Assembly (NCBI GenBank): GCA_052327205.1
Contig: JBMRGM010000043.1
Location: 30,380,001-30,444,000 of the forward strand
DNA from: Somniosus microcephalus
Lineage: Eukaryota
Reading direction: 5' to 3'
DNA: 64,000 bases
Position numbers and translations under genes: made by a program. Shown piece by piece: positions 1,476 through 63,734 of the stretch. Under the pieces are notes generated by a model, which saw only the letters and a list, made by a program, of their open reading frames with translations, did no database searches and was not told the DNA's origin. The stretch's first letter is position 1. Every line of letters starts with the position of its first letter.

Positions 1476-1494
1476 GATTTAGAAAACATAGTGA

Positions 1495-3978: not shown

Positions 3979-4044
3979 CGCATTCTCGTGACTTTCTGAT
4001 AGTGACCTCCGAATACACTAAATTGGCAGCATTTCCGGTAATAT
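3979..4044 (-). CDS. Gene A cytoplasmic exon with ITIM LVYSEV (DITGNAANLVYSEVTIRKSREC)
   Basis: Strong acceptor ttctctttttgtttctgtttag, 66 bp, phase 1-1, donor G|gtaaat. It could instead read on to a TAA about 60 nt further as a terminal exon. Confidence 0.8.
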
Positions 4045-4084
4045 CTAAACAGAAACAAAAAGAGAAAACAAGACAAAAACGAGG

Positions 4085-4300
4085 GATTAATATATAGATG
4101 ATAGAGAGACGATAGATATATATAGAGAAATAGGGAGGAAGACACGGGGAGATAGATAGAAAGATATAGATATTTGGAAAATAGATATAAAGATAGATAG
4201 ATAAATAGATAGAAACATATTGATGGATAAATGGACAGCCATTTACAAAGGTAGACTGATTGATTACTTGATATAAATTAATTGATAGCGATAATGAATT
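4085..4300. repeat. Degenerate (GATA/GA)n simple repeat
   Basis: Visible gatagata/gagaga tract. Confidence 0.75.
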
Positions 4301-4790
4301 GAGACAACCGTATTAGTATCCATATGAATATAGTGCATGGGAATAGATCATGTCATTTCCATCAGTTTAATAAGGATGATATATAATCATTAATTGAATA
4401 GCATTGATTTAAATGTCCAAGAATGGATGATGTTTGCCACCAAAAGTACACATTATTTGCCTTCAAATGTATCGATCGACTTATATTAAGCATTTGTTAT
4501 CGTCATTGCAGTTTATGGCAACACTAATAGTCCGGCCAGTTATGATGTTATCAAAAAACCAGAACAGGGGAGTTTGTGTGCAGGTTCTAAGGATACTAAT
4601 CCCGAGAGATGGAACTTACAAAGAGCCTATAGTGATTTTTTCTTTTACAAATACTGGTATTGTGGTGTCAGTCCTATAATGCATCAATCGATTCAGGCTC
4701 TTCCCAGATGACGTCTCACAAACTGAAGACAGACGCTACACTTACAGTAGTTAACAAGCCCTCTAGCAAAGTAATGCAGCGATTCCTTAC

Positions 4791-4847
4791 CTTCCATGGG
4801 CTTCGTGCCTTGTACTAAACTGTAGGTTACCTGATCAGAACTAGAAG
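4791..4847 (-). CDS. Gene A cytoplasmic exon with ITIM VTYSLV (xSSSDQVTYSLVQGTKPME)
   Basis: Acceptor ttcctctttctctctctacag, donor AAG|gtaagg, 57 bp, open in phase 1, V-x-Y-x-x-V motif. Confidence 0.85.
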
Positions 4848-6059
4848 CTGTAGAGAGAGAAAGAGGAAACTGCGATCAATGATAATCAAGGAAGCACTTA
4901 GATACCAGACCCATCCTACAATTCATGATTGGAAATTTACAGCTGTGTTCACTGGTTTTAAAAGCTAGCAACTATTTACGCTGATCAATACAAGCTGATC
5001 CAAAGTCCCGTGAGCAAAGTCATGAAGTGTCTTGGTCCCAAGCCATGGGGCTGGGCTGAGTCACTTGCTTATAAACAGGGTGGCGGTGAGCAGCACATTC
5101 TCTCATTCTCTCCATTCCTTTCACCCAGATAGCGGTGAGAGGTCCAGTTCCATCATTCTTTGCTTGGAAATTTGATTTGTAGTGGTTGTGAGGAGACAGG
5201 TCCCAATGTCAATTGAGTACTCAAGATATTGCTCATTATGTCTGATTATCAGTTTCTGAGATTAACACATATGGACTAGCACCCAGATGCCTTCCTATCA
5301 ATCCCGCCCGATTGGGACCCACTAACTTCAGAAAAAGAAGAATGAGAAGTAGAGGAAATAATTAATTCAAAAGGAAAAGGGAATAAGGGGTAGCTTTTTG
5401 TCTTGGCGTCGGAGCAGTTAGCATCATCTGCAAAGAGCGCAGACAGCTCAGTCTGCTGGGGCAACAGGCACATCCTTTACTGAACCACCTGCATTTCTTT
5501 CTATCAACATGGTTCAAATGGACCGTGCCAACGACCCCAAACTATTTCCCTTCGTATGCTCAACCCATGCGATGCTACCTGTCCAGGCAGTAAGTTATAA
5601 ATCTAACTAGAGTACGCTGAATGCTTGCAGATGAAGATCTCCAATGTCCATGGTCGATTTCCACCATGTCCCGTCGCAATGTCGGCGGAATATTGGTGCA
5701 AGTCATGTGAAACGGCCGTCTCCCTAAAGTTTTCACTGAACTTCCACTGATGTGACAGTGGGTTACCAGCAGAACAAATGTTACCGTGAACAATCTACCA
5801 TATTTTTCAAGTGTCAGTTCATGCTTACCAGTATTTGGGGCTGATCCCCCAACTGCATACTCGAAATTGCTCGCAGATGTTTCTTCACTCGGAGGTACAG
5901 ATCTATTTTCAGTTGTCACCCTTTGCACGAAAATATTCTTAGATATTAAGGATTCATGCATCAACAACTCAAAGTTCACTTTCAACGAAATGTTACAGCA
6001 TCATAGAAACATTCAGCAGTAGCTACAGAGAACATCGAACTCCTTGAAGGAGCAATCCT

Positions 6060-7640
6060 CCTTAGTTCCATATCCCTGGCTTTTGTCTGCAGCCCTGTAA
6101 GGTCCTCATCCTCAAAGATCCGTCCAATTAACTGCTAAAGTTATTGATGGAAATCGCTTCCACCAAATTTTCAGTTGGAGTGTTCTAGATACCGACAACT
6201 CTCTGAATGAAAAATAGTTCTCCACATCTCCCCTCAAGATCTTTTTACAATGATGTTAAATCTATGAACTCTAGTTATTGATCAAGAGGGAATATTGTTT
6301 CTCTATCTACTCTAACAAAACCTCTCGTCCTCTTGAAAATCACTATTGACTCACCCCTTAACCTTCTCTCTTCCACCTCCTAATTTTCCAACCACTCCTG
6401 GTAAATAAAGTCCCTCATCCCTGGTAATATCCTGTAAACATCCTCTGTATGCTTTCTTTGCCTCTTACACGTTTCCTGAAGTGTGATTTTATTCGTATTT
6501 GGGATGTGGGCGTCGCTGACAACGCCAGCATATACTTCCCATCGCTAATTGCCCTTGAGAAGGTGGTGGTTAGCCGCCTTCTTGAACCGCTGCAGTCCGT
6601 GCGGTGAAGGTGCTCCCACAGCGCTGTTAGGGAGGGATTTCCAGGACATTGGCCCAAGCGACGATTAAGGAGCGGCGATATACTTCTAAGGCAGGATGGT
6701 GTTTGACTTGGAGGGGAACTCGGAGGTGGTGTTCTGATGCGCCTTGTCCTTCTAGGTGGAAGAGATAGCGGGTTTCGGAGGTGCTGTCGAAGCAGCCTTG
6801 GCAAGTTGCTGCCTAGAATTGTCCAGCTGAGGCCTAACCACTGATTTCAAAAGTTCTAGCATGTTCTCTTTGCTTTTATATTCTAAGCCGCTATTTAAAA
6901 AATACAAGTGTTCCCTATGCTGCTTTAACCAACTTAGCAACTTGTCCTGCCATATTTAAGAATTTGTTTACAAGCACACCAAGTCATCTCTGCTCATCCA
7001 CCATTTTCAAAATCGAGTCCTTTATTGTATATTGTCTTTCCAGATTAGTTCTCCAGAAGTACATCACTTCACAGTTCTCAGGGTTGAACTCCAACTGCCA
7101 TGCTTCTGCCCATTTAACCATTCCTGTCTATGTTACCCTGAAGACTACAAGTATCCTCATCACTATCTACTACCTGGCCAAGTTATGTGTCATCTGCAAG
7201 TTTACAATGTTGCCCCCTACACCTTAATCTCGGTCGCTCATTGCAATTGCAAAGAGTTATGGACCCCAAACTGGCCCTTGGGGAACACAACTGCAAAACC
7301 ACCTCCCAGTCTGAGAAACATCCATCCACCACCACACTCTGCATCCTGTCACCGAGCCAATTCCCTATCCATACCACCACGTTCCCTTAATCCCATGAGT
7401 TTACATATTTTTTAACAAGCCTCGGTCGACTGCCTTCCGAAAGTCTATATATACATTTGCTACACTACCTTGATCAAAAGTTTCTGTTACCTCATCAAAG
7501 AATTCAATCGAGTTTGTCAGACACGATTTGCCTTCAACAAATCCATGTTGGATCTCCTTGATTAAACCATGATTTCCAAATAAAAGTTTATTTTTTCCCT
7601 AATAATGGTTCCAAATAACTATGTTAGGCTGACTGGCCTG
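6060..7640 (-). mobile_element. Old CR1 fragment with a nested 3' piece (about 6485-6820) of a second CR1/L2-clade LINE family
   Basis: Degenerate RT motifs (WIGNWLGDRMQSVVVDG, ADDT). The nested piece reads cttctcaagggcaattag on the minus strand, as at ~10000 and ~53165. Confidence 0.75.
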
Positions 7641-7946: not shown

Positions 7947-7977
7947 CCCTGCGGCTGTGAAACACTTGAGGAATTGT
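7947..7977 (-). CDS. Gene A first cytoplasmic exon (DNSSSVSQPQG)
   Basis: Acceptor tcttcctattttatctag, donor GG|gtaagt, 31 bp. A paralogous 31-bp exon sits at 51605-51635. Confidence 0.8.
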
Positions 7978-8504: not shown

Positions 8505-8606
8505 CTTGTTTCTTTTTCCGAAGTTTGAAGAAAACCAGTGCAATCAGGGTAGCGATCAGAAAAAGTGGAACAACGGCTGCTGTGATCGCGGTTGTGTGAC
8601 TTTGTG
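8505..8606 (-). CDS. Gene A transmembrane exon, uncharged (AQSHTTAITAAVVPLFLIATLIALVFFKLRKKKQ)
   Basis: ttccag acceptor, AAG|gtgagc donor, 102 bp, phase 1-1; hydrophobic stretch followed by basic KLRKKK. Confidence 0.92.
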
Positions 8607-10457: not shown

Positions 10458-10745
10458 CTATCACTGAAACTGTAACAACATCGCTTTGCAGAGGACGTCC
10501 TGTCGCTTTGTTTGAAACACCGCAACTATAATCCCCTTGGGTGCTTTGGTTGATTTCACTGATTTGGTAATTAATTTCGGTTAGGTTGGACTCCTCACGG
10601 AAGAGTTCTTTATCCGGGTCTTTGTAGAAAATGTAAGTAATCGGGGTAGAACCGTTGAACACTGAGCAGGTTAACGACGCTGTGTCTCCTTCTATTAACT
10701 CTTTACCAGGGCTGATTGCCAGTTCCGGTTTTGACACTGGGGTTC
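10458..10745 (-). CDS. Gene A membrane-proximal Ig domain D6 (FCRL D4/D5-like)
   Basis: 288 bp, phase 1-1, tttgcag / G|gtgagt; TPVSKPEL..EGDTASLTC...GSTPITYIFYK...GDYSC. Confidence 0.93.
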
Positions 10746-11435: not shown

Positions 11436-11714
11436 GTCTGACTGAAACTGAAACCTGATTACTCAGTTTCTTCACCTCACGGTTCAAAGTAGTTGCTTCA
11501 CACCGGTAAATCCCCGAATCTTCCGGCCGAGATGCTTCCCTGATGTAATAGCTGTGGTCTGCCGCTGAATTGAGAGGTTGTCCATCTTTGTAAAATACGA
11601 GTCTCAAGGAAGAATTGGATCGAAATATTTCTACCAAACAGGCGAGTTTTATCTGTTGGCCCTCAAATAATTGAGCTCCAGAATCAGCCCGCAAAGTAGG
11701 TTCGGAGAAGAGCT
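11436..11714 (-). CDS. Gene A Ig domain D5b (intact, FCRL D3-like)
   Basis: 279 bp, ttttatag / C|gtgagt; ELFSEPTL..EGQQIKLAC..FYKDG..EDSGIYRCEA..VKKLS. Confidence 0.93.
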
Positions 11715-12902: not shown

Positions 12903-13181
12903 CTGTTACCGAAATGTAAACCTCATCACTCTTCTTTTTCACACCAAAGTCGAAAGCATTTGCTACGCACTGGTAAATCCCTGAGTCCTTCAATGAAGCT
13001 GCCTCAGTGAGAATATATTTGTAGTATGGGGTCAAGATCAGAGCTGTGCCATTTTTGTAAAATGAATATTTTAAGCAAATATTTGACGGTATATTTTCAA
13101 TAAAACAGATGAATTTTAACTGGTCTCCCTCAAGTATTTCAACTGCAGGCTCAGACCTCAGTTTAGGTTTGGTGAAGAGTT
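12903..13181 (-). CDS. Gene A Ig domain D4b (intact; absent from the ORF track)
   Basis: 279 bp, ttttcacag / G|gtatgg; hand translation ELFTKPKLRSEPAVEILEGDQLKFICFIENIPSNICLKYSFYKNG...DSGIYQCVANAFDFGVKKKSDEVYISVT. Confidence 0.9.
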
Positions 13182-13276: not shown

Positions 13277-14385
13277 AACATAGAAACATAGAAGATAGGA
13301 GCAGGAGTTGGCATTCGGCCCCACGAGCCTTCTCCGCCATTCAATGCGATCATGGCCGATCAACCAAATTCAGTACCTGGTCACTGCTTTATCCCCATAC
13401 CCCTTGATCCCTTTAGCATTAAGAAATATATACAACTCCTTCTTGAATATATTTAATGAATTGGCCTCTACTGCCTTCTGTGGCAGAGAATTCCACAGGT
13501 TCACCACTCTCTGGGTGATGAAATTCCTCCTCATTGCTGTCCTAAATGGCTTACCCCTTATCCTTAGAATGTGACCCCTGGTTCTGGACTGCCCGACCAT
13601 CGGGAACATTCTTCCTGCATCTAGTCTGTCCAGTCCCGTCAGAATTTTATAAGTTTCAATGAGATCCCCTCTCATTCTTCTAAACTCCAGCAAGGACAAG
13701 CCCAATCGACCCAATCTCTCCTCATACGTCATTCCTGCCATCCCAGGTATCAGCCTGGTGAATCTTCGCTGAACTCCTTCCATGGCGGGTTAGGTTGATT
13801 GGCTATGATAAATTGACCCTTAGTGTTAGGGGGATTAAATGGGGATAAGTTTTGGTGTAGGGGTTACGGGGATTGGGTGGGATATGTGTCGGTGCAGGCT
13901 CGATGGGCCGAAATGGCCTCTATCTGCACTGTGGGGTTTCTGTGATCTGTGATCCTTCCTCAGATAAGCTGACCAAAACTGCACACAATACTCAAGGTGT
14001 GGTCTCACCACGGCCCTGTATAACTGCAGCAAGACATCCTTGTTCCTGTACTCAAACCATCTCGCTACGAAGGCCAACATGCCAATTCCCTTCTTAACCG
14101 CCTGCTGCACCTGCATGCTTACCTTCAGCGACTGGTGCACTAGGACACACAGGTCTTGTTGCACTTCCCCTTCTCCCAATCTATTGCGATTCAGATAATA
14201 ATCTGCCTTCCTGTTTTTGCCACCAAATTGGATAACCTCACATTTATCCACGTTATATTGCATCTGCCACGCTTTTGCCCAATCACCCAATCTCTCCAAA
14301 TCAGCCTCGAGTTTCTTGGCATCCTCCTCATAGCACACACGCCCAGCAAGCTTTGTGTCGTCTGCAAATTTGGAGAGATTACATC
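13277..14385 (-). mobile_element. 5'-truncated CR1 with a nested HE1-like SINE 3' fragment (~13785-13951, +)
   Basis: ORFs 13370-13783 and 13835-14338, catagaaa-type tail at 13277. The insertion is absent from the paralogous introns at ~19350 and ~56040. Confidence 0.92.
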
Positions 14386-15202
14386 TAGAGAATAGCCACG
14401 ATGGGCGCCTATACTTAATGGTAACCAGCAGCTGTATTGTGGATCACTGGAGCAGGAAGCATTATTATGTTTTTATGGATTTCCTCTCGCTGCTTTGTTT
14501 GCGGAGAACTTAACCTGATTAATTTATTCTGCTGAAACCGGAATTCCATACTGGGCAAGGCTTAATTATCAGCAGGAATATCCTCCCTTAGATCTTTTCT
14601 CTTTTAGCCATTCTCTGCTGCGTCTTCACCATCTAGTATGACCAGGGTGAACTCCACCAATATCCACAGCTACATTGCTCTGTCCCTAGCCAGCCCCCAG
14701 CTCAGCTGTCACCATCTGAAATTAAAAAGACTCCCGATTCTCCCGGCCAGGGTGATGGATCAGTGATGATATAACTCACCCGTTGCGATGATAAGGGCAT
14801 CCAACGGCATCAGCGTACAGATTTTATTAGGAGCCTGTGATTAAGCTTATGCCAAACAGGTAAGTGGAAAGGGCAAAAGAGAGGGGAGAGGAGCACACTG
14901 CTTATTGTGTCCTTCCACACAGTCCATCAGCGGACCCACCACTGAATTTTCAGGAGTACCTGCTGGTGCATTTTGTCAACTCATCATCGTGGTTGTTAGG
15001 GAGAGAGGCACCATCATATTTCGGTTTAGTGGGGGAATACTCCCCGTCAGCCTCTTGATGTAACAGGCTGGTAATGGGAAGCCGCCAAATTCTCCTCTGA
15101 GGTGGGGCGGGAGGAGAAAGATAGCTGCCAGTGCGTGCACGGGAGGAGACCCACCCTGGGTTAATTATTGGCTAAAGTAGCACGGTGTTAGACAGCCATC
15201 AT

Positions 15203-16057: not shown

Positions 16058-16315
16058 CTTGAACGTGAACATGAACACTTCGTGATTCCTTATTGCCAAC
16101 AGTGCAATGCTATGATCTGCTGTCTTTTGAACTATTCACTCTAATGCTATGCAGAGCTCTCCGATCGGTCAACTTCATTGAGTGAATCCTTATATTGCCA
16201 TTGTAAAAGCCAACATCTTTATGCCTCCAATAATGCATTCTGAACCAACAATTCAGATTCAGAACACCTCCTTCCAAAACCGAAGGTGGGTCGACATTGA
16301 AGGCCACTTTGCGAT
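16058..16315 (-). pseudogene. Gene A Ig exon D3b with an in-frame TAG
   Basis: 258 bp with intact splice sites. TAG at 16110-16112 replaces the Tyr of DSxSYHC (TAC in D3a). Confidence 0.85.
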
Positions 16316-49329: not shown

Positions 49330-50685
49330 ACATTTTTTCTATGATTTTTGTGCTAAAAATCACGTTGGAGGAAATCAAAGAGGAACCTGGTGGAGAGGTT
49401 CACACATCATTTACAGAACAGGCAGGATTTTCCTTGCACGCAGCTTAATGGAACAGGGAGCAAGTGGTTCTGCTTTCGGCAAGAGCTCCTTCCCAACCAA
49501 GCTTCCTTTCTGTGTTCTGCCCAGCAGATGTCCCACATCTGGCGCAGGGAGTACAGTGCTGGTATCATTTTAATAAAATAAACATTGATTCTTTTGTTGA
49601 ATATAAAGGGCGTGTCACGAGCTTACATTCAAAACCAGGGCGATAGAGCCTTGAAAGGAGTTGGAGTATTGTGATAAAATTCAGTCTTGAAAGAATAATG
49701 CGAAGTTTAGCAATAATTATTTATGATTAAGAGGTTTTTGGGAAATGTGCATACAGATGTGTTTTATATGTGTTTATATCAAGCGGTTCTGCGTTCAGCA
49801 AGGGATACCTTCCAACTGAACATACGTTATGCTGTCAGCCCAGCAGATGTCCCACATCTGGCGCAGTGAGTACAGTGTTGATATCATTTTTATAAGAGAA
49901 ACATATTAGACTCTTGATGAATGTAAAGGCAGGATCATTAGATTAGTTCCAAAACCAAGGGGACAGAGTGATGAAAGGAGTTGGAGTATTTTGAAAAAAT
50001 TAGTCTTGAAAGAAGAATGAGAAGTTTTTTGAAATATTATTTATGATTATGACAGGATGGTGGAATGTGCTTAGAGATGCGTTTTAATACCGAAGCTCAA
50101 GAAGAGTGCCACAGTTACAAATTGAGGGCCACAGAAATCAAGAAAGATAACCGTAAATTTATAATTGGTATTGATGCAAGTTCATGGGGTATCAATGATT
50201 TTTCCTGCCATTTGTTTGTTAAGAATCATGTTGAAGGAATGCAAAGATGAGAATATGGTGGAGAGGTTAACACATCTTTTACAGAACATGCAGGATTTTC
50301 CTTTCACGGTACTTAATGGAACAGAAATCAAGCGTTTCTGCTTTCAGCAAGAGATCATTCCGACCAGATCTTCCTTTCTGTGCTCTGCCCAGCAGATGTC
50401 CCACATCTGGCGCAGTGAATACAATGTTGATATCTTTTTAATAAGAGAAACATACTAGACGCTTGTTGAATATAAAGGCTGGGTCACTAGATTAGTTACA
50501 AAACCAGGGAGATAAAGCCTTGAAAGGAGTTGGAGTAATTTAAAAAAAAATCAATCTTGAAAGAAGATGGAGAAGTTTTAAAAATTATTATTTATGGTTA
50601 TGACAGGATTGGGTAATGCGTATAGAGATGTGCTTCCATACCGAAGCTCTAGAAGAGTGCCACAGTTTCAAATTGAGGGCCACAC
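49330..50685. repeat. Local tandem triplication (partial units up to ~500 bp)
   Basis: cccagcagatgtcccacatctggcgcag at ~49520, ~49840 and ~50387; tgaaaggagttggagta at ~49652, ~49972 and ~50521. Confidence 0.85.
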
Positions 50686-51604
50686 AAGCGTATCGAAAGT
50701 TCAAGCAACATTCAGTCAGAGGTTAAAACACATGTGGAATGATGTCCAGCATAGGGGAGTCGGAAAATAAACAGCGACTGGATTCACAAGGGGACTAGAT
50801 ATTCCAAGCCAACAAACACTGTTCAAGCTGATCAATAGTAGAACTGTATCCAGAAAAGCTTGTTCAGTTAAATGGACCACTGCCTGAGATAGTCACTGTG
50901 TGAATGTTACTAAAATTAACTACATGCGCAATCGCCCTGCACACCAAATCCTAGAATGCTTCAGGTCCCTGTGATTTACATGAGGATTAAATTGGAGGAT
51001 TAAAGAATAGTCCAGCTCACTGAGTGATTGAAGAGTTTGGGGTATAATTTCTTCTTGGGCGGTGGTGGAGAGCAGGGTTAAACGAAACTCCAACAGTTTT
51101 TACACTCCGCCCAATATTTGTTTACAAGTCACTGGAATCTAATCTGCGGACTGTAAAACGATTTGTAATCACCCCTTTTACTGTGCCACGCAGGGCGAAT
51201 TTCACTCTGTTTAAGTTAGGAAGTTCAGGTACAACTGACATAACTTAGAAAATGATCACTCCTTATAGACTGCAGGGAGTGTAATCGTTTGAGTGCGAGC
51301 TACAGTAAAGGCTTATCGTCAATGGGGCAGATTTTCCAACTCGGTGCCCGGAATAAAAAGTGGTGTAGCAGAACAGACACGCGTTGTAGAAACCACATGT
51401 TTTTCAATCCCATTCAACTCAAATTAAATTAAAATATGGTGTTTTCTATAACAGGAGGCTGATCCGTAATGCCAGATTAAAGTTCAATGCAATTGATAAA
51501 ATCTACCGCACAAGCATTTACCGCGTTTAGTTCAGCTATACAGAGACTGAGTATATTCAGGGATATAGCTATGGCTTATTCAGCTAAAAATTGCGTGGAC
51601 TTAC

Positions 51605-51635
51605 CCAAACGATTGTGAAATTCTTGAAGAATTTT
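51605..51635 (-). CDS. Gene B first cytoplasmic exon (ENSSRISQSFG)
   Basis: ttttatccag / GG|gtaagt, 31 bp, paralog of 7947-7977. Confidence 0.78.
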
Positions 51636-52159
51636 CTGGATAAAACAGGAAGAGACCTACTTCAGCAAGTTGTACAATAAATATTGCTGTACAGGTGGAT
51701 TTGTTTAACTGCAAACGTATTCATTCACATTAAATCTAAACTTTTACAAACGTGCATTAAATGACTTATTAATACAGAATCAATACAGAAAAGATATACA
51801 GAAACATGTAAGATATTACCATATACCGCGTTACAAATCCTTTAGGATGCATCGTCTCCTCACACTAACCACGAATGATGCTGCCACTTATTGTTCTACC
51901 CCTCGGCCACATGCATATCAATTCTGAACAGCACAAAGGGAAATAAAAACACTTAACTGGGCAAATTCGCCCCAGTCTTAAGCTCCTGTCTGTTCTGAGA
52001 TCGTCATTTCAAATAACATTTTTCTTTTTCCAGCCCAGACTATCCCTCTTTTGCCCAAATAATATGGTTGCATTTTGAATGTCGCAACTGAATATAGAAT
52101 ACACTGAAGCCCTTCACGTGACTATAGAGCCAATCACCTGCCTGTAAAACATGACTCAC

Positions 52160-52261
52160 CTTGTTTCTTGTTGGGACGATTGACGAGTACCAGTGCAATC
52201 AGGGCAGCAACAAGAAAAAGTGTAAAAACTGAGGCTCTGATCGCGGTTGTGTGAATCTGCA
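52160..52261 (-). CDS. Gene B transmembrane exon with Arg (VQIHTTAIRASVFTLFLVAALIALVLVNRPNKKQ)
   Basis: ttattccag / AAG|gtgagt, 102 bp. AGA at 52236-52238 where gene A has ACA (8581-8583). Confidence 0.9.
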
Positions 52262-52454
52262 CTGGAATAAAATAAACATATCCCATGAATAACATAATAC
52301 GGTTTCAAGTATGTACGGATATATTCATTTATTTATACAGTGCATCTTAAACATATAGATAAGCCCTGTGCCAGAATGAAGAATCCCATTGTGTGCATGT
52401 GTTGGTAATTTAGTGGATGAAAGATGATAGATAATTGCAGTAAATTGTACTCAC

Positions 52455-52641
52455 GTCTGACTGAAACTGAAACCTGATTGTTCAGTTTCTTCACCTCGCT
52501 GTGCAAAGTAGTTGCTTTGCCAAGGTAAGTCCCCGAATCGTCAGGCCGTGATGTTTCCTTAATGTAATAGTTGTGGTCTGCCGCTGAACTGGAGTGAAAT
52601 ATTTCAACCAAACAGGCGAGTTTTAACTGTTGGCCCTCAAG
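52455..52641 (-). pseudogene. Displaced, broken D5-type Ig exon of gene B
   Basis: EGQQLKLACLVEIF then an internal deletion, YLG in place of YRC, 5' end cut by CR1; lies downstream of D6. Confidence 0.8.
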
Positions 52642-52645
52642 TAAC

Positions 52646-53122
52646 TTATCTGAGGAAGGATGTTCTCCTTATCTGAGGAAGGATGTTCTCGCCATGGAGG
52701 GAGTACAGCGCTGATTAACTGGACTGATACCTGGGATGACAGGAATGCCGTATGAGGAGTGATTGGGTCAATTGGGCTTATATTCACTGGAGTTTTGAAG
52801 AATGAGAGGGGATCTCAATAAAACGTATAAAATTCTAAAAGGACTCGACAGATTAGATGCAGGAAGGATGTTCCCGATAGTCGGGGAGTCCAGAACCAGG
52901 GGTCACAGTCTAAGGATAAGGGGTAAGCCATTTAGAACAGAGATGAGGAGGAATTTCTTCACCCAGAGAGTGGAGAACCTGTGGAATTCTCTACCACAAA
53001 AGGAAGTTGAGGCCAATTCATTAATTATTTTCAAGAAGGAGTTAGATATGTTGCTTAAGGCTAACAGGATCAAGGGATGTGGGTAGAAAGCAGGGACAGG
53101 GTACTGAATTTGGATGATCACC
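52646..53122 (+). mobile_element. 5'-truncated CR1
   Basis: ORF 52802-53086; 23-bp tandem duplication cttatctgaggaaggatgttctc at its 5' junction. Confidence 0.9.
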
Positions 53123-53620
53123 ACGTGGACTGCAGCGGTTCAAGAAGGTGGCTCACCACTACCTTCTCAAGGGCAATTAGGGATGGCCAATTAAAGCAAA
53201 TGTTGCCAGCGACGCCCAATCCCATATACAAATACAAAAGTATTAGCAGCTACGGTTAAGAGATGATGTTCTAAAATTTATAGCCCAAAAATTACTGCCG
53301 ATGGTATTAAGATTTGAGTCGTCATTAACCTCTCCGTATAACTTCTCTCAATTTGTCAATTAAACAGACTGATCGGCCGTTTTAAATCTACAACTAACAG
53401 TTGCAGTTTGTAGACCAATACTTGATGCAATCAGATGACATTCTTGTTCTTTTTAGGCATTCACCTGTTTAATGTAAATGGCGCAGTGCCTCACTTCACA
53501 CAGAAGAATGTCAAAGAAGATGTTACAACGTCCAAGCTATTGGCAAAAGCAGTGATTCCCGGACTGTTCTCACTGAGTCACTTGTTTCGTTCTGCCTCAG
53601 AGGTATTTATAATAACTCAC

Positions 53621-53908
53621 CTAGCACTGCAACCGTAACAAAATCGCTGTGTAGAGGACGTCTGGTCGCTTCGTTTGAAACACCACAAATATAATCCCCT
53701 TGGGTGCTTTGGTTGACTTTACCGATTTGGTAAGTAATTTCGGTTAGGTTGGACTCCTCTCGGAAGAGTTCTTTATTTGGGCCTTTGTAGAATATGTAGG
53801 TAATCGGGGTAGAACCGTTGAACACTGAGCAGGTTAACGACGCTGTGTCACCTTCCAGTAACTCTTTACCAGGGCTGATTGCCAGTTCCGGTTTGGACAC
53901 TGGGATTC
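53621..53908 (-). CDS. Gene B membrane-proximal Ig domain D6 (intact)
   Basis: 288 bp, tttacag / AG|gtgagt; 15 aa differences from gene A D6 by manual count. Confidence 0.92.
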
Positions 53909-55670
53909 CTGTAAATATAACCATTTGTCAATTACATTGCTTTTGTGGAATTTGTAGTATTACTTTCAAAGTGAAATAGGGCTCTCATCAAAATAAAGAG
54001 CCTCGTCATTTAGGTTACCACTCCAATCTTGGGCGCCCGTGCCCCTCTCCTACTTCAGCAGTCAGTGGAATTAATAGAGGAAAAACTGATTCTGGAACTG
54101 CAATGATTCCTATTGCAATCCACTAGTGGCCACCCTACTATCTCTGGCCTGGTACTGATTCCTACTAACTCTGCACTATTCCAGTACCATAAACACTATC
54201 TACCTAAATGCAATTGCATCTAACTCCACTGCTCCACTTGGCCAATCATTCTTTGTTCCAGCAATCCTCGAATAAAGAACGTTCTTCTAAGCTATCCTCC
54301 CGCTTATATTGATAATTATACATCAATGATCCCTCCTTCCTGTCTTCGCAATCAGAGTAAATACCATTCCCTTATCACCCTATCTCGGTCTTATCATGTA
54401 ATAAACAGTAATGAAATAACTCTTAGCCATGGCTACTCCGGTAGTGTTCGTGCCAGTAGCTCAAGTCTATTCTGGTGAATAAGGTTTTCCATCCCTGGCG
54501 TCATCTGGTGAATCAACGCTTCCCGTTTTCTGTGATTTTACTGTTCTCTTTAAAATGGAAGGCAGGACATTGGACACAGTATCTGTGGCCTCACGAATGT
54601 GTTGTATAAACATGCTATTATTTCCTTTCCCCTGTTGTCTATGCGACAATAATTTAGTTATTTATGTATTCAGTGCATGTTGAACATATAGGTAAGGCCC
54701 TTACTTCACGGATCAATCCCCGTGTGCGAACCTTCACATTTTAGGACATTCATGTTAAACGCTCAGCTATGGACAATGCAATTCTTTGAAAATCCACTGA
54801 TGACACAGGATCGATAACACCCACTTGGTGTTCTGATTGCCTGCTCCTTTTAAAATGTAAAGATAGAGTTATGATTGGCAGATTCTAACTGAATGCAATC
54901 GAGAGGCCGGACATCAGAGGCTCAGCCTTCAATAGCCTCCGGCGTTTTGCCACCCCGTCATCCCCCTCTACTGAAATTGGAGGGGTGGAAATTCAAGTTT
55001 GTCTGGGGTGCAAAACCGGTAGTAGCTCATTGGCCATACTATCTACACACAGGTGAAATTCGATTTTCTTGTCTGCCAATTATCTACTGCACTCTCCAAG
55101 TTAAATTTTAGCACCGAGATTTCAGCTAGCAACGATTGCCGGGACTAGTAAGTGGTAAGGCACTGTCTGATTAAACACCGTGCTGTTCCTGACCAGGTTC
55201 TGCTCGTTGCTGATTCAGTCAGACAGAAACAGAGGAGGTAACTTGACCTTGGATCCATGGTGTAAAACGCGTGGTATCGAATCTTGCACCAATTGTACAC
55301 CACGCACGATGTTCCTGTCCAATGATAATGATGCGACGCAAACACGGGAGGGACATATAATGGGAGGCAAATTCAGTATCGCCCATTCGACACTATTGCA
55401 GGAAGCTAATATTAGCCACTGGGAGTGGACACTGGTCTTCAAACGTTGCAGCTATTACAAGTGTGGGTTTCAGTAAATGTATGGATTTTTTATAGAACCA
55501 GGTGGCGCTTTGATTTAAACAGATCACATCCAAAATTGATTTATTATGTGATAAAGCTGGGAGTAAATCTTTTTCCACATTGGATCCCTCCCGTATATTT
55601 ATTTATCTATAATCCCCTGAAGAATTCTTTAAATGAAAGATGAACAGTAATTACAGCTGGTTCTATTTAC

Positions 55671-55947
55671 CTTCTACCGTAATGGAAACCTCATCACTCT
55701 GTTGTTATCACGGTGGTAGAAAGCATTTGCTCAACAAGGCTAAGTCACCGAGCCCTTCAAAGAAGCTGCCCCCATGTGCTTAGAGTTGATGTATGAATTC
55801 AACTGCAGAGCTTTGCCATTTTTGTGAAATGTGTATTGAAGCCTAATATTGAACAGCATTGTTTCAATAAAAAAATGAATTTTAACTGGTCTACCTCAAA
55901 TATTTTAACTGCAGGCTCAGTCCTCAGTTTAGGTTTGGAGAAGAGTT
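55671..55947 (-). pseudogene. Gene B D4 pseudo-exon
   Basis: Acceptor AG mutated to CG (55948-55949), 277 bp, first Cys codon lost in a T run, frameshifted. Confidence 0.85.
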
Positions 55948-56735
55948 CGGTGAAAACAGAATATGGATTGGGAGGTAAGAATTCATCTCATATAGTTAAA
56001 CAAATAGCAGAGATTATTGATAACAAGAGCAAGGATATACCAAGAACCACCACGAGGTGCGACTGTACTAAATGGTAACCAGCAGCTGTATTGTGGAACA
56101 CTCCAGTAGGCAGCATTACTATATTGTTATGGATTTCCACTCGCTGCTTTGTTTGCGGAGAACTTAATCTGCTTAATATATTCTGCTGATACAGGAACTC
56201 CACGCTGTGCAAGACTTATTCAAGTATGAATCCTTCAATAGAACTTTGCTCTTTTCGCTATTCCCTGCTGTGTCTCAACATCTACTATGATCACTGTGAA
56301 TTCTGCAAATATTCACAGTTACATCACTCTGTCACCACCCAGCCACCACATTGGTTGGAAGGTATGATTCTGTGATCATCACTATGACAGGCTATTGCTT
56401 GACTGGTCTGTGGGACAGCTGTCCCAATTTTTGCAGAAGTCCCCAGATGTTAGGGAGGAGGGCTTTGCAGGGTTGACTGTGTGTCTTATCTGTGTCCGAA
56501 TATGATGCCTAGTTCAATGCCAGGTGTTCCTCCAAGTTTTAATCTTACAGTTTTTTCTAGTGCTTTGATAAAACTTAGTAGCTTGCCAAGCCATTTCAGA
56601 GGGGATTAAGAGTCAACCACATTTCTGTGGTTGTGCAGTCATATATAGGCCAAGGATTCTTAGAATACTTCACATCCTTCAACAGCTCATTACCAGATCA
56701 AATAAAGAAAATGAAAAAGAAAAGCAGTGACCAAC

Positions 56736-57002
56736 TTTTTATGGTGATGGTTACATTCGGGGAGATCCACTTCCTGTAACGTATTTTGAGTTCACACCGA
56801 TATGGTGCCGTATCTGACTCTTTTGCGTTTTCTATGGTGTACTGAGATTCGTCAGTTTCTGCTATTAACTGTTTATCTCGATACCACAGGAAGGGAAAAC
56901 CTTCTCTCCATTTCCAGGAAGGCATCAAACATTTCAGGATAATACTGTCACCTGACAGTGCGGATGTTGGATTCACTTCCAGAGTTAAATTCATATCAGA
57001 AG
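56736..57002 (-). CDS. Gene B Ig domain D2
   Basis: 267 bp, ttttttttgcag-type acceptor, A|gttggt donor; GDSIILKC..FLWYRD..DTAPYRC. Confidence 0.9.
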
Positions 57003-58818
57003 CTGCAAAAAAAGTGAAACATATGAACGAAATACAAATTAAAATATGTTAAAGCACCATTCTTCAATGTTAAAAAACATTGGCTTGAAAGTGCAGCTCA
57101 ATATCCAGAGCAATCGGTATCACCTCAGTAACTAAAAGTAATTTTAAGACCTGAAAAGCCAAACTAATGTTTATTGGTTCAGAGAGTGACCGTTCCCTTT
57201 CTAATGCTGAGCTATCACTGCTCATATTGCCCTTCAAGGTTTCATCAACGAAGTTCAATGGCGAGGATCGATTCAACAGCCAGGCAGATGCCCAGCCCTC
57301 TCTAAATAAACGTCTGGTATTTGTAAATGTTGTGCAATCAAGATATTAAAACCGTGGCCGCTTTCACCTGTTCAGGTGCTTCTGATATCAGTTAAAAATC
57401 CCATTGAACGACGCCAAGACGAAGAAGTCGTTCCAGTGTCCTGGGGTATTGCTCGTTCGTCCAGCAAGACCAAACAAATTAGCTGCTCATTGTCCCATTA
57501 CCTTTTGTGGAAACACAGGGCAATTTCCTGCCTTCGCTCCTCCGCTGTAACTTCGCCAGGTGTGCGGAAGGGAACCCCATTTATGTATGTAAAGGGTTTT
57601 TGCACTGCACATACAATAAACTTGTGGCAGTGCTCAAGGAGCGCCCCTAGTTAGTCACCTATCAACAATTTTTCTAGCATTGCTTATTACCTAGATAAAA
57701 GCATTCGTTGCACCTCATAATAATTTGTTTTCTGAGAGACACAAGATAAATGTACACTCCACTTCTCACCATGCCTCGGGTCTGCAGATGCACTTCCAAC
57801 CAATCCTGATCCCAGGGGAGCGCCGGGAGGATACACTTGAGCTACTTTTCACTTTTACCGCCAAGAGGCCAAAGGGCAGTAATGGAGCAGCCATAAGTTT
57901 CAAACCACTCTCGATTTATTTAACACTGAAGTAAATAGAAATGCGACTCCACCTGAATCTAAAACATGGCGATTGATTGGACCTCGCCTGTTTATTTCAC
58001 CCTGCGACGAAAGGTAAAGTTATTCCCACTCCGGTATAAATTTGCAATACACATTGGCGGCAAATGAGCGAATACGAAACAGCAGTCGGTTTTATGACTT
58101 TTACATTTGATTTGTAACAGGGTTGGAGAGAGTAGAGCCCATTACGTGCTTCCACCAAAGTTGGATTTTAAACCTGTGATGGGTCACCCTACAACCTATT
58201 TCGCAGAGGATGAAGTAATGTTTAAATGGAGAAGTCATTGCATATCAGACCAGCGACACAACGCAGCCAGAAGGCGACACAGCAATTCTCAGATGTCATT
58301 ATTATTAATATAAACTAGTTTGCAGATCACAGATTTTGTAGTTTGAACTTTGGAAATAGAATTTAAGCTTTCAACACAGTCTTAAAATTACTCTAGGAGA
58401 TATTAACGGTGGCTTTCTCGTATCTGCTGTTTTAGAGAGCCGCTGTTCCATGCACAATTAGCGGTTTAAGGTCTCTCTTGAAATAAATAACATTTGATTG
58501 ACCTAACAACATGTAAGAATTTGGGTAGATTTAGACTCTGTGCGATATTTCAATTGAAGTTAATGTGATATAAATGGGAGGTGAAACTGGCTGATACTAC
58601 CGCACAAAATAGCGGCATATATTTCAACTCTGGGGAAACCGAGAGGTCCCCCTGTTAGGAGGAGGGATGAAGGTACACTTCTGCCCAGTGGTCCAATTTT
58701 ATCCCAGTATTGCATGTGCTTGATATCCTGTACTATATTTGACTGTGAGGCCCCTTTATAAGCGACACATTTCTCGACTAAAACTGAGCTATGATCATTG
58801 GTGTCGAAGTTTACCTAC

Positions 58819-59067
58819 CAATGGTGACTAAATCCAGAGGTTTACTCTTCTCAGAGGAGGACCAAGGCACTGAACACTGGTAAGACGCTCCACTGCGACT
58901 ATCTGCATATCTTTCAAAGAACATATATTTAAAATGAATATAAGTCTCATCTTTATACCAATAAGCCCAGTTATTCATGCCTCTGTATCGACACTGCAGG
59001 TAAAATGTCTCCCCTTCTTTCACGATTCCATCGCTCGGATTGCTAAGGACTACTTCTGGGACATGGG
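58819..59067 (-). CDS. Gene B N-terminal Ig domain D1
   Basis: 249 bp, ttcattctacag / G|gtaggt; KEGETFYLQC..YWYKD..SGASYQC. Confidence 0.92.
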
Positions 59068-59377
59068 CTGTAGAATGAAATTAAAATAATGTTCTGATTA
59101 GAATTGTTGAAACTAATCTGTGCAATATCCACTACAGAGAATTTCTAGTCGCTGTCCAAAATGGGCGCTACCTATCGGGTGCCCATGGATCGATCTTTTG
59201 AGTTGGTGATGACTTTACATCGTTGATATCGACCTCAGCACGTTGTAAACGGAAACTCCCTGGCTGCTTAAACTTTTAGAATGGCCGACCTTTGGGCGGC
59301 AGAAGCACCTGCCTTTTCCTGGCGGTACTCCTCTGTCACCATGCAAATCAGGATTTTGTGATTTACACCGGACCCAG

Positions 59378-60425
59378 CATAGAAACACAGAAACATGGAA
59401 AAATAGGAGAAGGAGTAGGCCATTCAGCCCTTCGAGCATGCTCTGCCATTCAATATGATCATGGCAGATCCTACGTCTCACAAACATATTCCAGCTCTCT
59501 CCCCATGCCCCTTGATGCCTTTTGTGTCTAGAAATCTATCTATCCCCTTCTTAAATATATTCAGTGACTCGCCCTCCACAGCCTTCTGTGGTAGAGAATT
59601 CCACAGGTTCACCACCCTATGAGTGAAGACGTTTCTCCTCGTCTCAGTCCTAAACTTCCTACCCCGTATCCTGAGACTGTGACCCCTCGTTCTAGACACG
59701 CCAGCCAGGGGAAACATCCTCCCTGCATCCAGTCTGCGTAGCCCTGCCAGAATTTTAACCGTTTCAATGAGATCCACACATTCTTCTAAACTGTAGTGAA
59801 CACAGGCCTAGTCGACCCAGTCTGTCCTCATACGACAGTCCTGCCATCCCGGCAACCAGTCTGGTGAACTTTCGCTGCACTCCCTCTATGTCAAGTACAT
59901 CCTTTCTTAGGTAAGGAGACCAAAACTGCACACAGTACTCCAGGTGTTGTCTCACCAAGGCCCTCTATAACTGTAGAAAGACATCCTTGCTCCTGTACTC
60001 AAATCCTCTTGCAATGAATATCAACATAGCACTTGCCTTCCTAACTGCTTGCTGTACCTGCATATTTGCTTTCAGTGTTTGGGGTACAAGGACACACAGG
60101 TCCCTTTATACATGAACATTTCCCAATTTATCACCATTTATTTAGTACTCTGACTTTCTGTTTTTCCCACCGAAGTGGATAACTTCACATTTATCCACGT
60201 TATGCTGCATCTGCAATGGTTTTGCCCACTCACTCAACTTGTCTAAATCTCCTTGAAGACACTTTGCCTCCTAATAACAACTCACGATCCCACCTCGTGT
60301 CATTTCATCAGCAAACTTGGAAATATTATATTTGGTTCCCTCATCCAAATCATTGATATTTATTGTGAATAGCTGGTGCCCAAGCACTGATCCTTGCAAA
60401 ACACCACTAGTCACCGCCTCCCACC
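59378..60425 (-). mobile_element. 5'-truncated CR1
   Basis: ORFs 59478-59777 and 59764-59958; catagaaa-type tail at 59378. Confidence 0.92.
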
Positions 60426-60544
60426 CCGTATGTCATTGCAGAACAGAATGGTCGGAGTGTGCTCCATGCACTCTCCCATCAGGTTTACTAGCGAAAGCAT
60501 AAAAGCGACACAGAATAAGTACGCTTTCCATATATTTCCATATC

Positions 60545-60740
60545 ATCATGAAATGGTAGATGCAGGAACCCTCACAACATTCAAGAAGCATTCAGATGAG
60601 CACTTGAAACGCAACAGCATACAAGGCTACGGACCAAGAGCTCGAAAATGGGATTAGAATAGATAGGGCTTGATGCCTGGCGTGTACACGATGGGCCGAA
60701 GGGCCTCTTTCTGTGCTGTATAACTCTATGACTATGAATA
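60545..60740 (+). mobile_element. CR1 3' end fragment
   Basis: MVDAGTLTTFKKH..QGYGP..KWD* and the atgggccgaagggcct..ctctatgactatga tail. Confidence 0.8.
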
Positions 60741-61366
60741 ACACTGAATATTCCCTTCCAATCACAGAAAACGAAAATTGAAAACTATTCTCTGCTTCCT
60801 TGTCTCAGACAATTTCTTATCCACGCTGTCCGTACCCCTTAATCGCAATGATAACAATACGATTTTTGCGAACAAATCAGTTGTGTGGTACTTCATTAGG
60901 CATTTTTTGAAAGTCTATATACACGACAGTGAACTGCACTAATTTGATTAGCATTCCCTGTTACTTCAACAAAGAACTCTCTATCTATCCATCCATTTAT
61001 TTACTCAGTTATGATTACTCGCTGCCAACCCACAGTTAAATGATCTAGCAGTTACACAGACAAATTTCTAGGTCGCTTTTTCTTTAATATATTGTGGTAG
61101 ACATTAAACTTGGCGCCGAGGCTTAAAACTGGGGTTCTGATTGGCCGACCGTGAGAGAAACCGCCCACTTTACATTCCCACCGAATCAATGAAAATGATG
61201 ACCGAAAGTTTCTCATAGGTGGCGAGTCCAGAACCACAGTTTTACGCACGGGCGAACAGCTGATAATTACTCCATTGCTGGATTGTTGTTGTCCTATAGA
61301 TATAAATTGGAAGCGTTCATTCCACAACTGGATTATTATCAATAAAGGACATTATTGTCATCATAC

Positions 61367-61396
61367 CTTGTGTGGTCGCCTGATGAGTAATTTGCA
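61367..61396 (-). CDS. Gene B 30-bp leader mini-exon S2
   Basis: Same exon sequence as 24951-24980; tcttctctcttgcag / AAG|gtatga. Confidence 0.85.
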
Positions 61397-61969
61397 CTGC
61401 AAGAGAGAAGACAATGTAAAATATGTTTCATTATCTGAGACCATCTTCAAGTTTGACCTCAGCTGCTCAGCTGTAAGGCAGCTGAATAGAGGAAACACCC
61501 AGGGGTTGAAATTTGACTTCGGCAGGGACACAAAACAGGCGGAAACACATTTGCTGCCAGTCCATACATGCCACGAGGTATTCAGTTCAGTTGAAGTAAA
61601 TGTAAAATATTAATATATCGAATGATGCCAATTGTCCCTCTCACAGACAAAGATAAATTGTTATTTTGTGGAAGTTCCCCATGGTCTGAGGACTATATGG
61701 AAAAGTTGCTGCCGGATGAAAGGAAACTGACAAATATTGAAATGTATCATTGTTCTGAGAGCCAATGAGTGTGATTGTTCTGTCAAGGAGAAGGGAATAT
61801 TTCATTAAAATTGTTTATAGGCCATTTAGGATGGAAATCAGGAAGCACTTTTTCACACAATGTGTAGTGAGAAATTTCAACGCTCTTTACAAAAACCGCT
61901 GTGGATTTTGCGGGTAAATTGGTACTTCCAAGACGGAGATCGATAGATCTTCGTTAAAAAATGAAAGAA

Positions 61970-62360
61970 ATAGTTGCATTCCTATAGCGCCTTTCAAGAC
62001 CTCCGAACTTCCCAAAGCGTTTTAAAACCAATGAAGGACATTTAAAGTTTAGTCAGTGTAGGAAATGTGGCAGCCAATGTTCACACAATGATGTTGATAA
62101 TGACCAGATTATCTGTTTTTGTCATGTTGATTGAGGGACAAATATTGCCCAGGGCACCAGGGATAAACACCCTGGAAGGGGCCTCACTTTAACGTCTATT
62201 ATAAAAAACGGCCAATCCGACAGTGCGGCACTCCCTCAGCACTGCACTGGAGTATCAGCTTAGTTGATTGTGCTCAAGTCCCTGTAGTGGGACCGGAATC
62301 ACACGAACCTTCTGACTCAGAGGCGAGAATGCTATACACTGAGCCACGGCTGACACGAGT
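61970..62360 (-). mobile_element. Deu-domain SINE (duplicated with the segment)
   Basis: Closely similar to 29830-30215. Confidence 0.75.
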
Positions 62361-63019
62361 TGAGTAAGCGTAACAATGGATGTTGAGCAAAGTGGGGTAA
62401 TTGGAGTGGAGGTACAGATTAACCATCATATAATTGAATGACAGAGCAGCGTCGAAGGGCTGAATGGCCTACTCCTGTTGGTATGTTCCTATCATCAGTT
62501 AACTCATCTTTAATCGATTCAGAATCACAAGTATTACCTGGGTTGCAACTGATACTCGTGAAGACAATACATGACCCAGCCGCTAGCAGCAGAAAGCAGC
62601 AGGAAGCTTTTGTCGCGCCTCAGGCCACAGGAATCAGACTACTAAGGCAATGCCTGCTGCTGCAAACCTTGCAAATATAATTGCAAAAGGGTCAATGGTC
62701 AATGCAGATGTGTCTGTATTTCATTGTTCAACATGTAGAACCTGGGACTTTTGTCCAGCTAGGATTCAATAGGGTGAATGTTTCAAGCATTCAGTTAGGC
62801 CAATATTTCCAAAAAGTGGGTTTCATGTGCTGTGCAACAAATAAATCATGGGGCCTATTATATGCTCAAGAATGAACAACTTGAGGTTAACTTCACATAT
62901 TTTAAGCTCTACCTCATTAATCTGTGGAAGTAGCTGTGACCAACATGGTCCCACAACTGATGTCAAGTTACTAAAATAGATGAGATTCTGGTGAAAGAGT
63001 CGGTGGTACATTAAAGATG

Positions 63020-63100
63020 CAAACCCTGTTGTTTGTTCCTGTTTGCTGGGCTTGTGATCCAGTGGTTAACAAGCCAATAGAGCGCTGACGTCAGCATCTC
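63020..63100. promoter_or_regulatory. CCAAT + CRE + ETS-like module (gene B copy)
   Basis: agccaatagagcgcTGACGTCAgc with the CRE at 63086-63093; same arrangement at 30921-30944. Confidence 0.45.
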
Positions 63101-63518
63101 ACAGGAAGGCAGCCTCAATGTCCTGTGGCCATAAAGAGTCATTTCTGTCTAAATTCCAATAAACAGCATCAGAAATTAATTTTAAAGATGCAGCATTTTA
63201 AATTTCCTTGCCAAACACCCTTAAGCCGTCAGTTTAGGTCAAGTATAATCATAGTAAATATGTTCTCCTCAGCTTTGTTAACTCAAGTGTTGTCGTCCCG
63301 TTAATGTCTATTTTCTCCCTCACAACAGAAAATAAAAGAAGCCCTTCATCGTGAATCTGCAAAACTGAGTTGAAAAAAAAACTCCTGCCCTCTCTCTCTC
63401 TCTCTGTCACTCTCCTTCGTGGACAGCTTAATTGTTACTTTCTTACAATCTCTGTCTATCTGTCTCTCTCTGTCCCTATCTGATTGTCTTTCGCACTGAC
63501 TCCCTCTCCCGCTCCGCC

Positions 63519-63552
<34 letters not shown>

Positions 63553-63664
63553 GCACTGTGGCAGTTGTTAACAAGAAGCGTGCCTGCCGCACACGAAATC
63601 ATCAAGCAATGACATGGACCAAGTTTAACATCTAGCCACAGAACCCACGCACTGTAAATCTCAC

Positions 63665-63734
63665 CGCATGTATTAAGAGCAATTTGTAAGAGTGAGTCAA
63701 CTGAGCCAACTCTGATACTTGAGATGAAGCGCAT
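63665..63734 (-). CDS. Candidate leader exon S1 of gene B (MRFISSIRVGSVDSLLQIALNTC)
   Basis: 70 nt from ATG to G|gtgaga, phase 1, in frame with S2; only weakly hydrophobic. Confidence 0.42.

Follow-up and report, generated by a model that had tools for sequence, protein, structure and literature searches.

The window analysed here, a stretch of 64,000 nucleotides from Somniosus microcephalus (assembly GCA_052327205.1, contig JBMRGM010000043.1, hereafter C43, positions 30380001-30444000), carries two tandem minus-strand genes for immunoglobulin (Ig) domain receptors, called gene A and gene B. It raises the question of whether sharks possess a paired inhibitory and activating receptor system built from domains of the Fc receptor (FcR) and FCRL type. 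The initial annotation, made from the sequence alone, had proposed such a system with A and B as its two members. We read the cluster to which both genes belong as a real paired-type family of FcR/FCRL-domain genes, which would work like XFL of Xenopus or LILR; the partner of gene B is, however, another gene than A.

Size of the Family and the Two Transmembrane Classes

The proposed expansion was borne out by exon searches of the genome contigs, which found the family in many copies on C43. This contig holds every one of the 118 D3 exon matches, with C40 and C41 having none, as well as 39 of the 42 matches of the D4/D5 exon and all 40 of the transmembrane (TM) exon (40 of 46 candidates scored). 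With two more found in fetched DNA, C43 has at least 42 TM exons, at 21.5, 25.3-25.5 and 30.3-31.9 Mb. Exons were mapped over about 0.8 Mb of the roughly 2 Mb cluster, and their ends were set by AG/GT and phase.

Translation of 30 of the 40 TM loci gave 21 with an Arg and nine neutral ones, and four more neutral TM exons were read from further stretches. Exons with ITIMs (immunoreceptor tyrosine-based inhibitory motifs) were present behind every neutral TM exon mapped with enough downstream DNA, and no C3, C4 or last ITIM exon was found behind any Arg TM exon in the mapped stretches. The contrast first drawn from genes A and B, a neutral TM followed by ITIM exons versus an Arg TM without them, is therefore repeated in the cluster.

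Adjacent 70-kb units are 98-99% identical, and the arms of an inverted duplication centred near C43 30.67 Mb (~30669000) are 99.85% identical over at least 10.6 kb. The copies of gene B are young, their TM exons being 99-100% identical. Such arms, together with the many exons that are 99-100% identical in 10-11 places, could mean that the assembly has inflated much of the copy number. We consider this improbable, since units next to each other are 1-2% divergent and have gained, lost or fused exons. For many gene types the exon divergence is 10-25%, so that collapsing the near-identical copies would still leave the family in place.

Single loci of the cluster depart from the common plan. A copy of gene A at C43:30455109-30478771 is without the last D3, D5, TM and C1 exons and keeps the ITIM exons. 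In an Arg-class gene at C43:25365221-25379633 no Ig exon was found to separate the leader exons from the TM exon. Both sub-clusters are edged by a more distant Ig gene (35-40% identity; C43:25649416-25652338 and 30285614), whose D4/D5 domain is sister to the D4/D5 of the family.

Origin and Structure of Gene B

As mutual partners, genes A and B could not be upheld: they share only 41 of 83 and 45 of 86 residues in the first two domains, and 80 of 95 in the third. Window 64000-53118 instead matches, at 99.1-99.3% identity, a gene 1.3 Mb off (C43:31.753-31.778 Mb), in which one more Ig exon comes next, followed by a neutral TM and ITIM exons. The idea of a paired family thus holds for gene B and this ITIM-bearing twin (99% DNA identity, 11 kb) and fails for A and B.

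For window 53123-44116 the match, at 98.9% identity, is with another Arg gene, in its 3′ part; this Arg gene has a different ectodomain and is itself 85-93% like an inhibitory gene at C43 25.43-25.48 Mb. The switch between the two kinds of DNA falls at a 3-base shared word in all six gene B copies and in none of the four neutral twins tested. Because the two parts of the gene match the twin and the Arg gene, respectively, with the switch at the shared word, gene B is probably a fusion of the 5′ part of an inhibitory gene and an older Arg cassette. It would have arisen when the inhibitory 5′ part fused to the existing cassette, and would then have multiplied with the 70-kb unit. The Arg cassette was found joined to two different ectodomains. 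The features of gene B are as follows:

63665-63734, minus strand: leader exon 1, with the ATG at 63734
61367-61396, minus strand: leader exon 2
58819-59067, minus strand: Ig exon D1a
56736-57002, minus strand: Ig exon D1b, with a weak-looking donor that is the same in the inhibitory twin
55671-55947, minus strand: dead D3 exon, with acceptor lost, frameshift and stops; dead in the twin too
53621-53908, minus strand: D4/D5-type exon, identical in protein sequence to that of the inhibitory twin
53117-53121, minus strand: fusion point, with twin-type DNA upstream, the long interspersed nuclear element (LINE) of the Arg cassette downstream and a 3-nt shared word
52447-52660, minus strand: D3 remnant (3′ part), cut by a LINE insertion, no acceptor
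52160-52261, minus strand: TM exon with Arg, codon AGA versus ACA in the neutral class
51605-51635, minus strand: cytoplasmic exon C1, 31 nt
48184-48257, minus strand: cytoplasmic exon C2, homologue of the Tyr exon of gene A, with Tyr replaced by Ser
47153-47193, minus strand: candidate last coding piece, unconfirmed, no Tyr in frame after C2

The TM Arg without an ITIM exon described for gene B was confirmed: the Arg opens the hydrophobic stretch (TAIR), and the spliced chain has no Tyr after the TM. Using the candidate last piece, the chain is open over 383 codons; read-through gives 346 or 378. Three Ig exons are intact and D2 is absent. Both dead exons are without an acceptor, and the default splice path is therefore open.

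A conserved stretch behind C2 of the Arg genes, with YxHL in some frames, was rejected as an ITIM exon, acceptor and frame fitting in one of seven copies. In an intron of gene B a unit of 300-500 bp recurs in three to four diverged forms (78-83%; window 49271-50687), and LINE (reverse transcriptase) fragments occur at window 1-3700, 13300-14400, 40700-45700, 52660-53120 and 59400-60400.

Structure of Gene A

Genes A and B have in common, as first described, a split leader (70 + 30 nt), phase-1 Ig exons with AG/GT ends, a 102-nt TM exon and a 31-nt first cytoplasmic exon. The outer limits assigned to the pair are also exact, 3979 being the donor of the second ITIM exon of gene A and 63734 the ATG of gene B. 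The exons of gene A, and the orphan exons that separate it from gene B, are:

28429-28498, minus strand: leader exon 1, 70 nt, ATG
24951-24980, minus strand: leader exon 2, 30 nt
23403-23654, minus strand: Ig exon 1, D1a, subtype weakly D1-like
22145-22405, minus strand: Ig exon 2, D1b
20308-20562, minus strand: Ig exon 3, D2 type
18996-19258, minus strand: Ig exon 4, D3 type, frameshift, splice sites intact; undamaged in the next copy of A
17388-17666, minus strand: Ig exon 5, D3 type, second Cys replaced by Trp; joined to exon 7, the next intact exon, it gives a stop
16058-16315, minus strand: Ig exon 6, D2 type, internal stop
12903-13181, minus strand: Ig exon 7, D3 type
11436-11714, minus strand: Ig exon 8, D3 type
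10458-10745, minus strand: Ig exon 9, D4/D5 type; PECAM1 domains score too
8505-8606, minus strand: TM exon, neutral, Thr at the key position, basic stop-transfer stretch
7947-7977, minus strand: cytoplasmic exon C1, 31 nt
5829-5902, minus strand: cytoplasmic exon C2, Tyr motif FEYAV
4791-4847, minus strand: ITIM exon C3, VTYSLV
3979-4044, minus strand: ITIM exon C4, LVYSEV
C43:30379603-30379572 and from C43:30378088: two exons beyond the left edge of the window
31502-37141, minus strand: three orphan leader exons between A and B (about 37138-37069, with a stop; 34299-34270; 31571-31502)

The neutral TM and both ITIM exons reported for gene A are all present. The Tyr exon C2 is an addition to the initial annotation, as are the two exons left of the window, located via the tails of shark relatives: one of 32 nt and a terminal one that encodes VTYAIV and VYENF. 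Including these, the whole product has ~734 aa, and the chain minus the three defective exons (4, 5 and 6) is open over 681 codons.

Identity of the Ig Domains

The domains had been likened to D3 and D4/D5 of FcR/FCRL. Against profiles built from tetrapod domains, exon 3 scored 37.8 on D2, and exons 7 and 8 scored 50.9 and 57.3 on D3, versus 14-27.5 on domains of the leukocyte receptor complex (LRC) type. Among solved structures (PDB), exon 3 matched FcR/FCRL chains only (16/16, as D2). The best match of exon 7 was FcgRI D3, with FCRL5 D3 also found; FcgRIII and FcgRI D1 came first for exon 2 and FCRL5 for exon 9, and exon 1 gave nothing clear. Quick trees, built on 95-column alignments with moderate support, placed the D2 domains together (support 88 and 92) and, in one of two trees, the D3 domains as well (support 88). 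No window domain scored best on, or grouped with, IGSF1-like LRC domains, represented by one reference protein. The D3 likeness is thus supported by profiles and PDB, and D2 is added to it; the D4/D5 domain scores equally on PECAM1.

That last result is a point for a different reading, in which the receptors are PECAM1- or Allergin-like adhesion or checkpoint molecules that merely resemble FCRL. The PECAM1 profile gives the top score for D1b (exon 2) and for exon 9 (49.7 versus 47.5/45.9 on D4/D5), which speaks against an FCRL identity of these domains; profiles and trees do not part D1 and D4/D5 from PECAM1, and PDB favours FcgR D1 and FCRL5. Moreover, some relatives are auto-named PECAM-like, and ITIM tails occur in PECAM1 as well. 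We nevertheless regard this reading as highly improbable. D2 and D3 fall with the FCRL domains of tetrapods, and beyond sharks most of the next relatives are FCRL of frog and mammals. Separate PECAM1-like exons lie on C21, and, unlike the single PECAM1 gene with its fixed six-domain order, the genes of this large cluster differ in domain number and order, so that a one-to-one counterpart of an adhesion gene, which the initial annotation had named as a possible refutation, was not found. The PECAM1-like Ig exons of C21 form two sets that resemble each other, with 120 kb between them (C21:69783231-69788705 and 69906471-69910704), and this contig also has a second Tweety gene.

The model predicted for a horn-shark relative can be superposed on the entire FcgRI ectodomain, D1-D2-D3 (TM-score 0.72-0.79 by target length, root-mean-square deviation (rmsd) 3.7-4.6 Å); the model is that of the relative and not of gene A, and the prediction may lean on solved FcgRI. 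In a structure search with the same model the top-ranked PirB and adhesion matches had rmsd >13 Å and were domain-level only.

The N-terminal domains vary most among the paralogues, and this fits ligand- or pathogen-driven change. Ig binding by gene B is unlikely because it has no D2. The BC-loop Trp of FcgRI, which we take to have a role in Ig binding, aligns to Arg in the D2 of gene A; with this and the missing D2 of gene B, classical Fc binding appears doubtful. The signal peptide is encoded by two exons, and their 70/30 nt do not follow the 30/21-bp leader exon rule, which holds for mammalian FCRL1-6 and only for a fraction of XFL (PMC2413239; papers are cited here for the available part of their text).

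The Arg Transmembrane Segment and Its Relatives

The Arg and neutral TM exons are homologous, with 74-84 of 102 bases in common; one base separates the Arg codon from the Thr codon of the neutral class. The Arg-class variants differ by at most 17 of 102 bases, and the Arg, the loss of the basic stop-transfer residues and the loss of the ITIM exons always occur together. The Arg takes the position that it has in NxxR receptors (PMC2413239, PMC6557307), within TAIR in gene B and within NTIR in one of seven variants.

The nearest relatives are sharks and a ray, in agreement with the proposed shark origin. The relatives compared are those returned by the searches, isoforms included, from nine named shark and ray species plus five unnamed proteins (one further protein has no TM). 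The Arg is absent in all 23 of the TM-bearing ones, most of which keep the ITIM layout, and in a protein search with the gene B TM exon for Arg-type relatives, a weak search, none of the 113 candidates scored. The inhibitory class is probably old, because the same tail layout is common to sharks and a ray. The Arg class would be derived from it within this lineage, including the Thr-to-Arg change; we liken this origin to that of the activating KIRs, which derive from inhibitory ones (PMC6557307).

Adaptor Gene and Chromosomal Location

Two zeta-family TM exons were found, one FcR-gamma-like at C40:10607082-10607165 (E 8e-13 for FcR-gamma versus 1e-9 for CD3-zeta) and one CD3-zeta-like at C14:86659861-86659947; the genome appears to possess an FcR-gamma-like gene. 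The predicted complex of the Arg TM of gene B with two FcR-gamma TM peptides had a score of 0.08.

The markers of the FcR region (1q21-23) that were searched all lie off C43: besides FcR-gamma these are VANGL (C40, C14 and C1), PRCC (C41, one weak exon match), PIGM (C5) and RGS-like ARHGEFs (C26 and C12), the paralogues of VANGL and of the ARHGEFs not being assigned by sequence. The PIGM and RGS-like searches failed to locate the FcR region. On C43 itself, a Tweety gene, one exon of which matches human TTYH1 only, lies at 26.9-27.1 Mb between the two sub-clusters, and PRPF31 lies at 16.3 Mb. LRC-type Ig exons at C43:22.84, 23.09, 24.91 and 35.86 Mb, plus one on C28, have their top scores on IGSF1-like domains and also group with them (support 94). 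Mammalian LRC clusters are set apart by groups of genes for which TTYH1 and PRPF31/CNOT3 serve as markers (PMC6557307); the NxxR TM and the LRC chromosome context are also treated in PMC4536121 and PMC8302630. The family is linked to the LRC markers TTYH1 and PRPF31, with CNOT3 on C28, and not to the FcR-region markers tested. We class it neither as an LRC family, because its domains are of another type and the NxxR module is not retained, nor as a positional orthologue of FCRL, because the linkage to the tested markers is missing.

This location can be explained by history alone, if ordinary FcR-region FCRL genes moved secondarily onto the TTYH1 chromosome; the location would then have no bearing on a common origin of FcR and LRC, and signalling would be unaffected. 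We give this explanation slightly less than an even chance. It is opposed by the restriction of all D3 exon matches to C43, by the four LRC-type Ig exons that flank the cluster and by the place of TTYH1 between two sub-clusters, as between the mammalian LILR clusters (PMC6557307). A more far-reaching proposal is that C43 keeps the ancestral jawed-vertebrate locus, in which receptors with FcR/FCRL and LRC domains stood around TTYH1 before they parted, with a working pair coupled to FcR-gamma and an Arg TM re-invented from the inhibitory TM, as KIRs did with Lys. We put it forward only tentatively. CNOT3 lies on C28, 0.2 Mb from the LRC-type Ig exon there, which does not favour it, and seven marker families in one genome are no proof of ancestry.

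The LRC-type Ig exons of C43 and of C28 (42.237 and 42.243 Mb) are IGSF1/A1BG/KIR3DX1-like and represent candidate shark LRC genes. The LRC-like gene on C28 is adjoined by a long open frame with a polymerase of the LTR-retrotransposon type (C28:42226254-42228653). Dozens of near-identical Ig-type exons with weak matches to the C28 domain occur at C40 20-52 Mb and on C39 and are possibly immunoglobulin cluster genes. One VANGL gene is found twice with identical scores (C1:309052-321916 and C14:77357105-77369962), possibly a duplicated or misplaced segment.

Proposed Function

Considering the exon structure, the two TM classes, the ITIMs found only behind a neutral TM, the twin with its ITIM tail and the FcR-gamma-like gene, we think it rather probable that this is a working paired system, in which the ITIM class (gene A) would dampen leukocyte signalling and the Arg class (gene B) would activate it via FcR-gamma. 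By analogy with known families, ligand binding by gene A would lead to phosphorylation of the ITIM tyrosines and recruitment of SHP-1/2. Within the membrane, the TM Arg of gene B would pair with the FcR-gamma Asp, and the immunoreceptor tyrosine-based activation motif of FcR-gamma would signal; the model is provided by the Xenopus NxxR receptors, which couple to FcR-gamma (PMC2413239). The likeliest job of the N-terminal domains would be the recognition of self or of pathogen decoys, gene B serving as the activating counter-copy of its twin rather than in classical Fc binding.

A number of observations weigh against such a working pair. The Arg is invariant in all seven Arg-class variants, which is weak evidence since half of the TM codons (17 of 33) are invariant. 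The Asn of the NxxR module and its DYT are missing in six of seven TM variants, and Tyr is kept in six of seven Arg-class C2 exons, so that the class is not uniformly Tyr-free. Behind the TM of gene B a scan gave one ITIM-like candidate segment near 51019, which would shift the frame. In gene A the defects affect three of nine Ig exons, which retain their AG/GT ends, and a full receptor can therefore be obtained from this copy only by skipping three exons with intact splice sites. Among the nine Arg-class loci mapped, a clean path exists only in two of the B type; the remaining seven are missing a leader, ectodomain or splice site, or contain stops. The nine neutral-type loci mapped include three that are clean or nearly so and two that have lost the TM exon. 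As clean loci are few in both classes, decay is general to both.

Expression data belong with these points. Two RNA runs of unknown tissue, 24-31% of which was read, were mapped to 46300-62200, which covers gene B only, with no positive control. No exon-to-exon joint of gene B occurred among the 15 joints shown (11 more are not shown). Read depth was zero in the bin of the first Ig exon and at most ~1x in those of the TM and D5; it fell on repeats, with LINE fragments taking nearly all of it. Two runs without a control neither show nor exclude expression of gene B in leukocytes, and a sequencing-run search with gene B gave no RNA run among those listed. In the bamboo shark, B cells express genes annotated as fcgr1a-like, fcrl3 and fcrl5 (PMC11372145), whose membership in this family is not shown.

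The seven broken Arg-class loci, the missing gene B splicing and the lack of the Arg in every other shark or ray relative that bears a TM could also indicate a purely inhibitory family, whose Arg class is a short-lived by-product consisting mostly of pseudogenes, with gene B silent or a non-signalling decoy; given how young the gene B copies are, an open frame in them cannot reveal selection. We hold this to be unlikely. Arg, basic-residue loss and ITIM-exon loss are coupled in every variant despite the base differences among them, the Arg cassette has been joined to more than one ectodomain, decay is about equally common in the neutral class, and the relatives checked are limited to those that the searches returned. 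A working pair remains the reading that we prefer.

Comparison with Known Receptor Systems

The shark family resembles Xenopus XFL in its large cluster, two-exon leader, shuffled D1-D6 domains with repeated D3 and many aberrant exons, and in having one TM class with an N-terminal Arg and one neutral class (PMC2413239). It differs in that the Arg TM of XFL is a conserved NxxR module unrelated to the neutral TM, whereas the shark TM exons are homologous, and in that XFL is linked to SLAM-type genes (PMC2413239) and the shark cluster to TTYH1. With mammalian FCRL1-6 and FcgRI it shares the D2 and D3 types, a candidate D4/D5 type, the predicted D1-D2-D3 geometry and ITIM tails. Unlike them it has a leader of 70/30 instead of 30/21 nt, two D1-like domains and an Arg-TM partner class, and lies off the contigs holding the FcR-gamma, VANGL and PRCC matches.

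The paired logic, the N-terminal TM Arg and the TTYH1 neighbour are features of the LRC receptors (LILR/PIR, KIR, FcaRI, GPVI, NKp46 and chicken CHIR), and in KIR the activating TM is likewise closely similar to the inhibitory one (PMC6557307). Unlike LRC receptors, the shark Ig domains do not go with the LRC (IGSF1-like) type, and NxxR is found in one variant only. Paired activating and inhibitory receptors of cartilaginous fish are known in the MDIR of the skate, whose V-type domains (of the CD300/pIgR kind) are unlike the C2-type domains of the shark cluster. Teleost LITR, compared by description only, are also an expanded paired fish family with FcR-like D1/D2, but are without D3-D5 (PMC2413239), D3 being the commonest type in the shark.

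Shark and ray proteins auto-annotated as 'Fc receptor-like protein 2/3/5' belong to the family of gene A, with the same domains, TM and tail, and all 23 of those with a TM are neutral. Two fcrl genes and one LRC-like gene were reportedly described from the elephant shark in a 2021 paper in Immunogenetics. FCRL-like shark genes are thus already known from automatic annotation; no publication was found that reports the Arg form, the pairing or the location. No paired, expanded, TTYH1-linked shark cluster of the FCRL type was found described in the literature searched, which mostly excluded subscription journals and to which supplements may add; a term search of one elephant-shark supplement file and of the whale-shark main text gave no matches.

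FCRL genes are given as absent from cartilaginous fishes in the available text of PMC4016189 (2014), PMC5742104 (2017) and PMC13337447 (2026), as are the FcR-gamma chain in that of PMC4016189 and PMC5742104 and C2-only LRC genes in that of PMC4016189. The present genome holds candidates for all three. The cluster would display the birth of an activating partner, an inhibitory ectodomain joined to an Arg cassette with a base-exact junction. Its place among markers of the mammalian leukocyte receptor region would date the receptor system to the earliest jawed animals, and its products are candidate receptors by which shark leukocytes may sense antibody, self or pathogen decoys.

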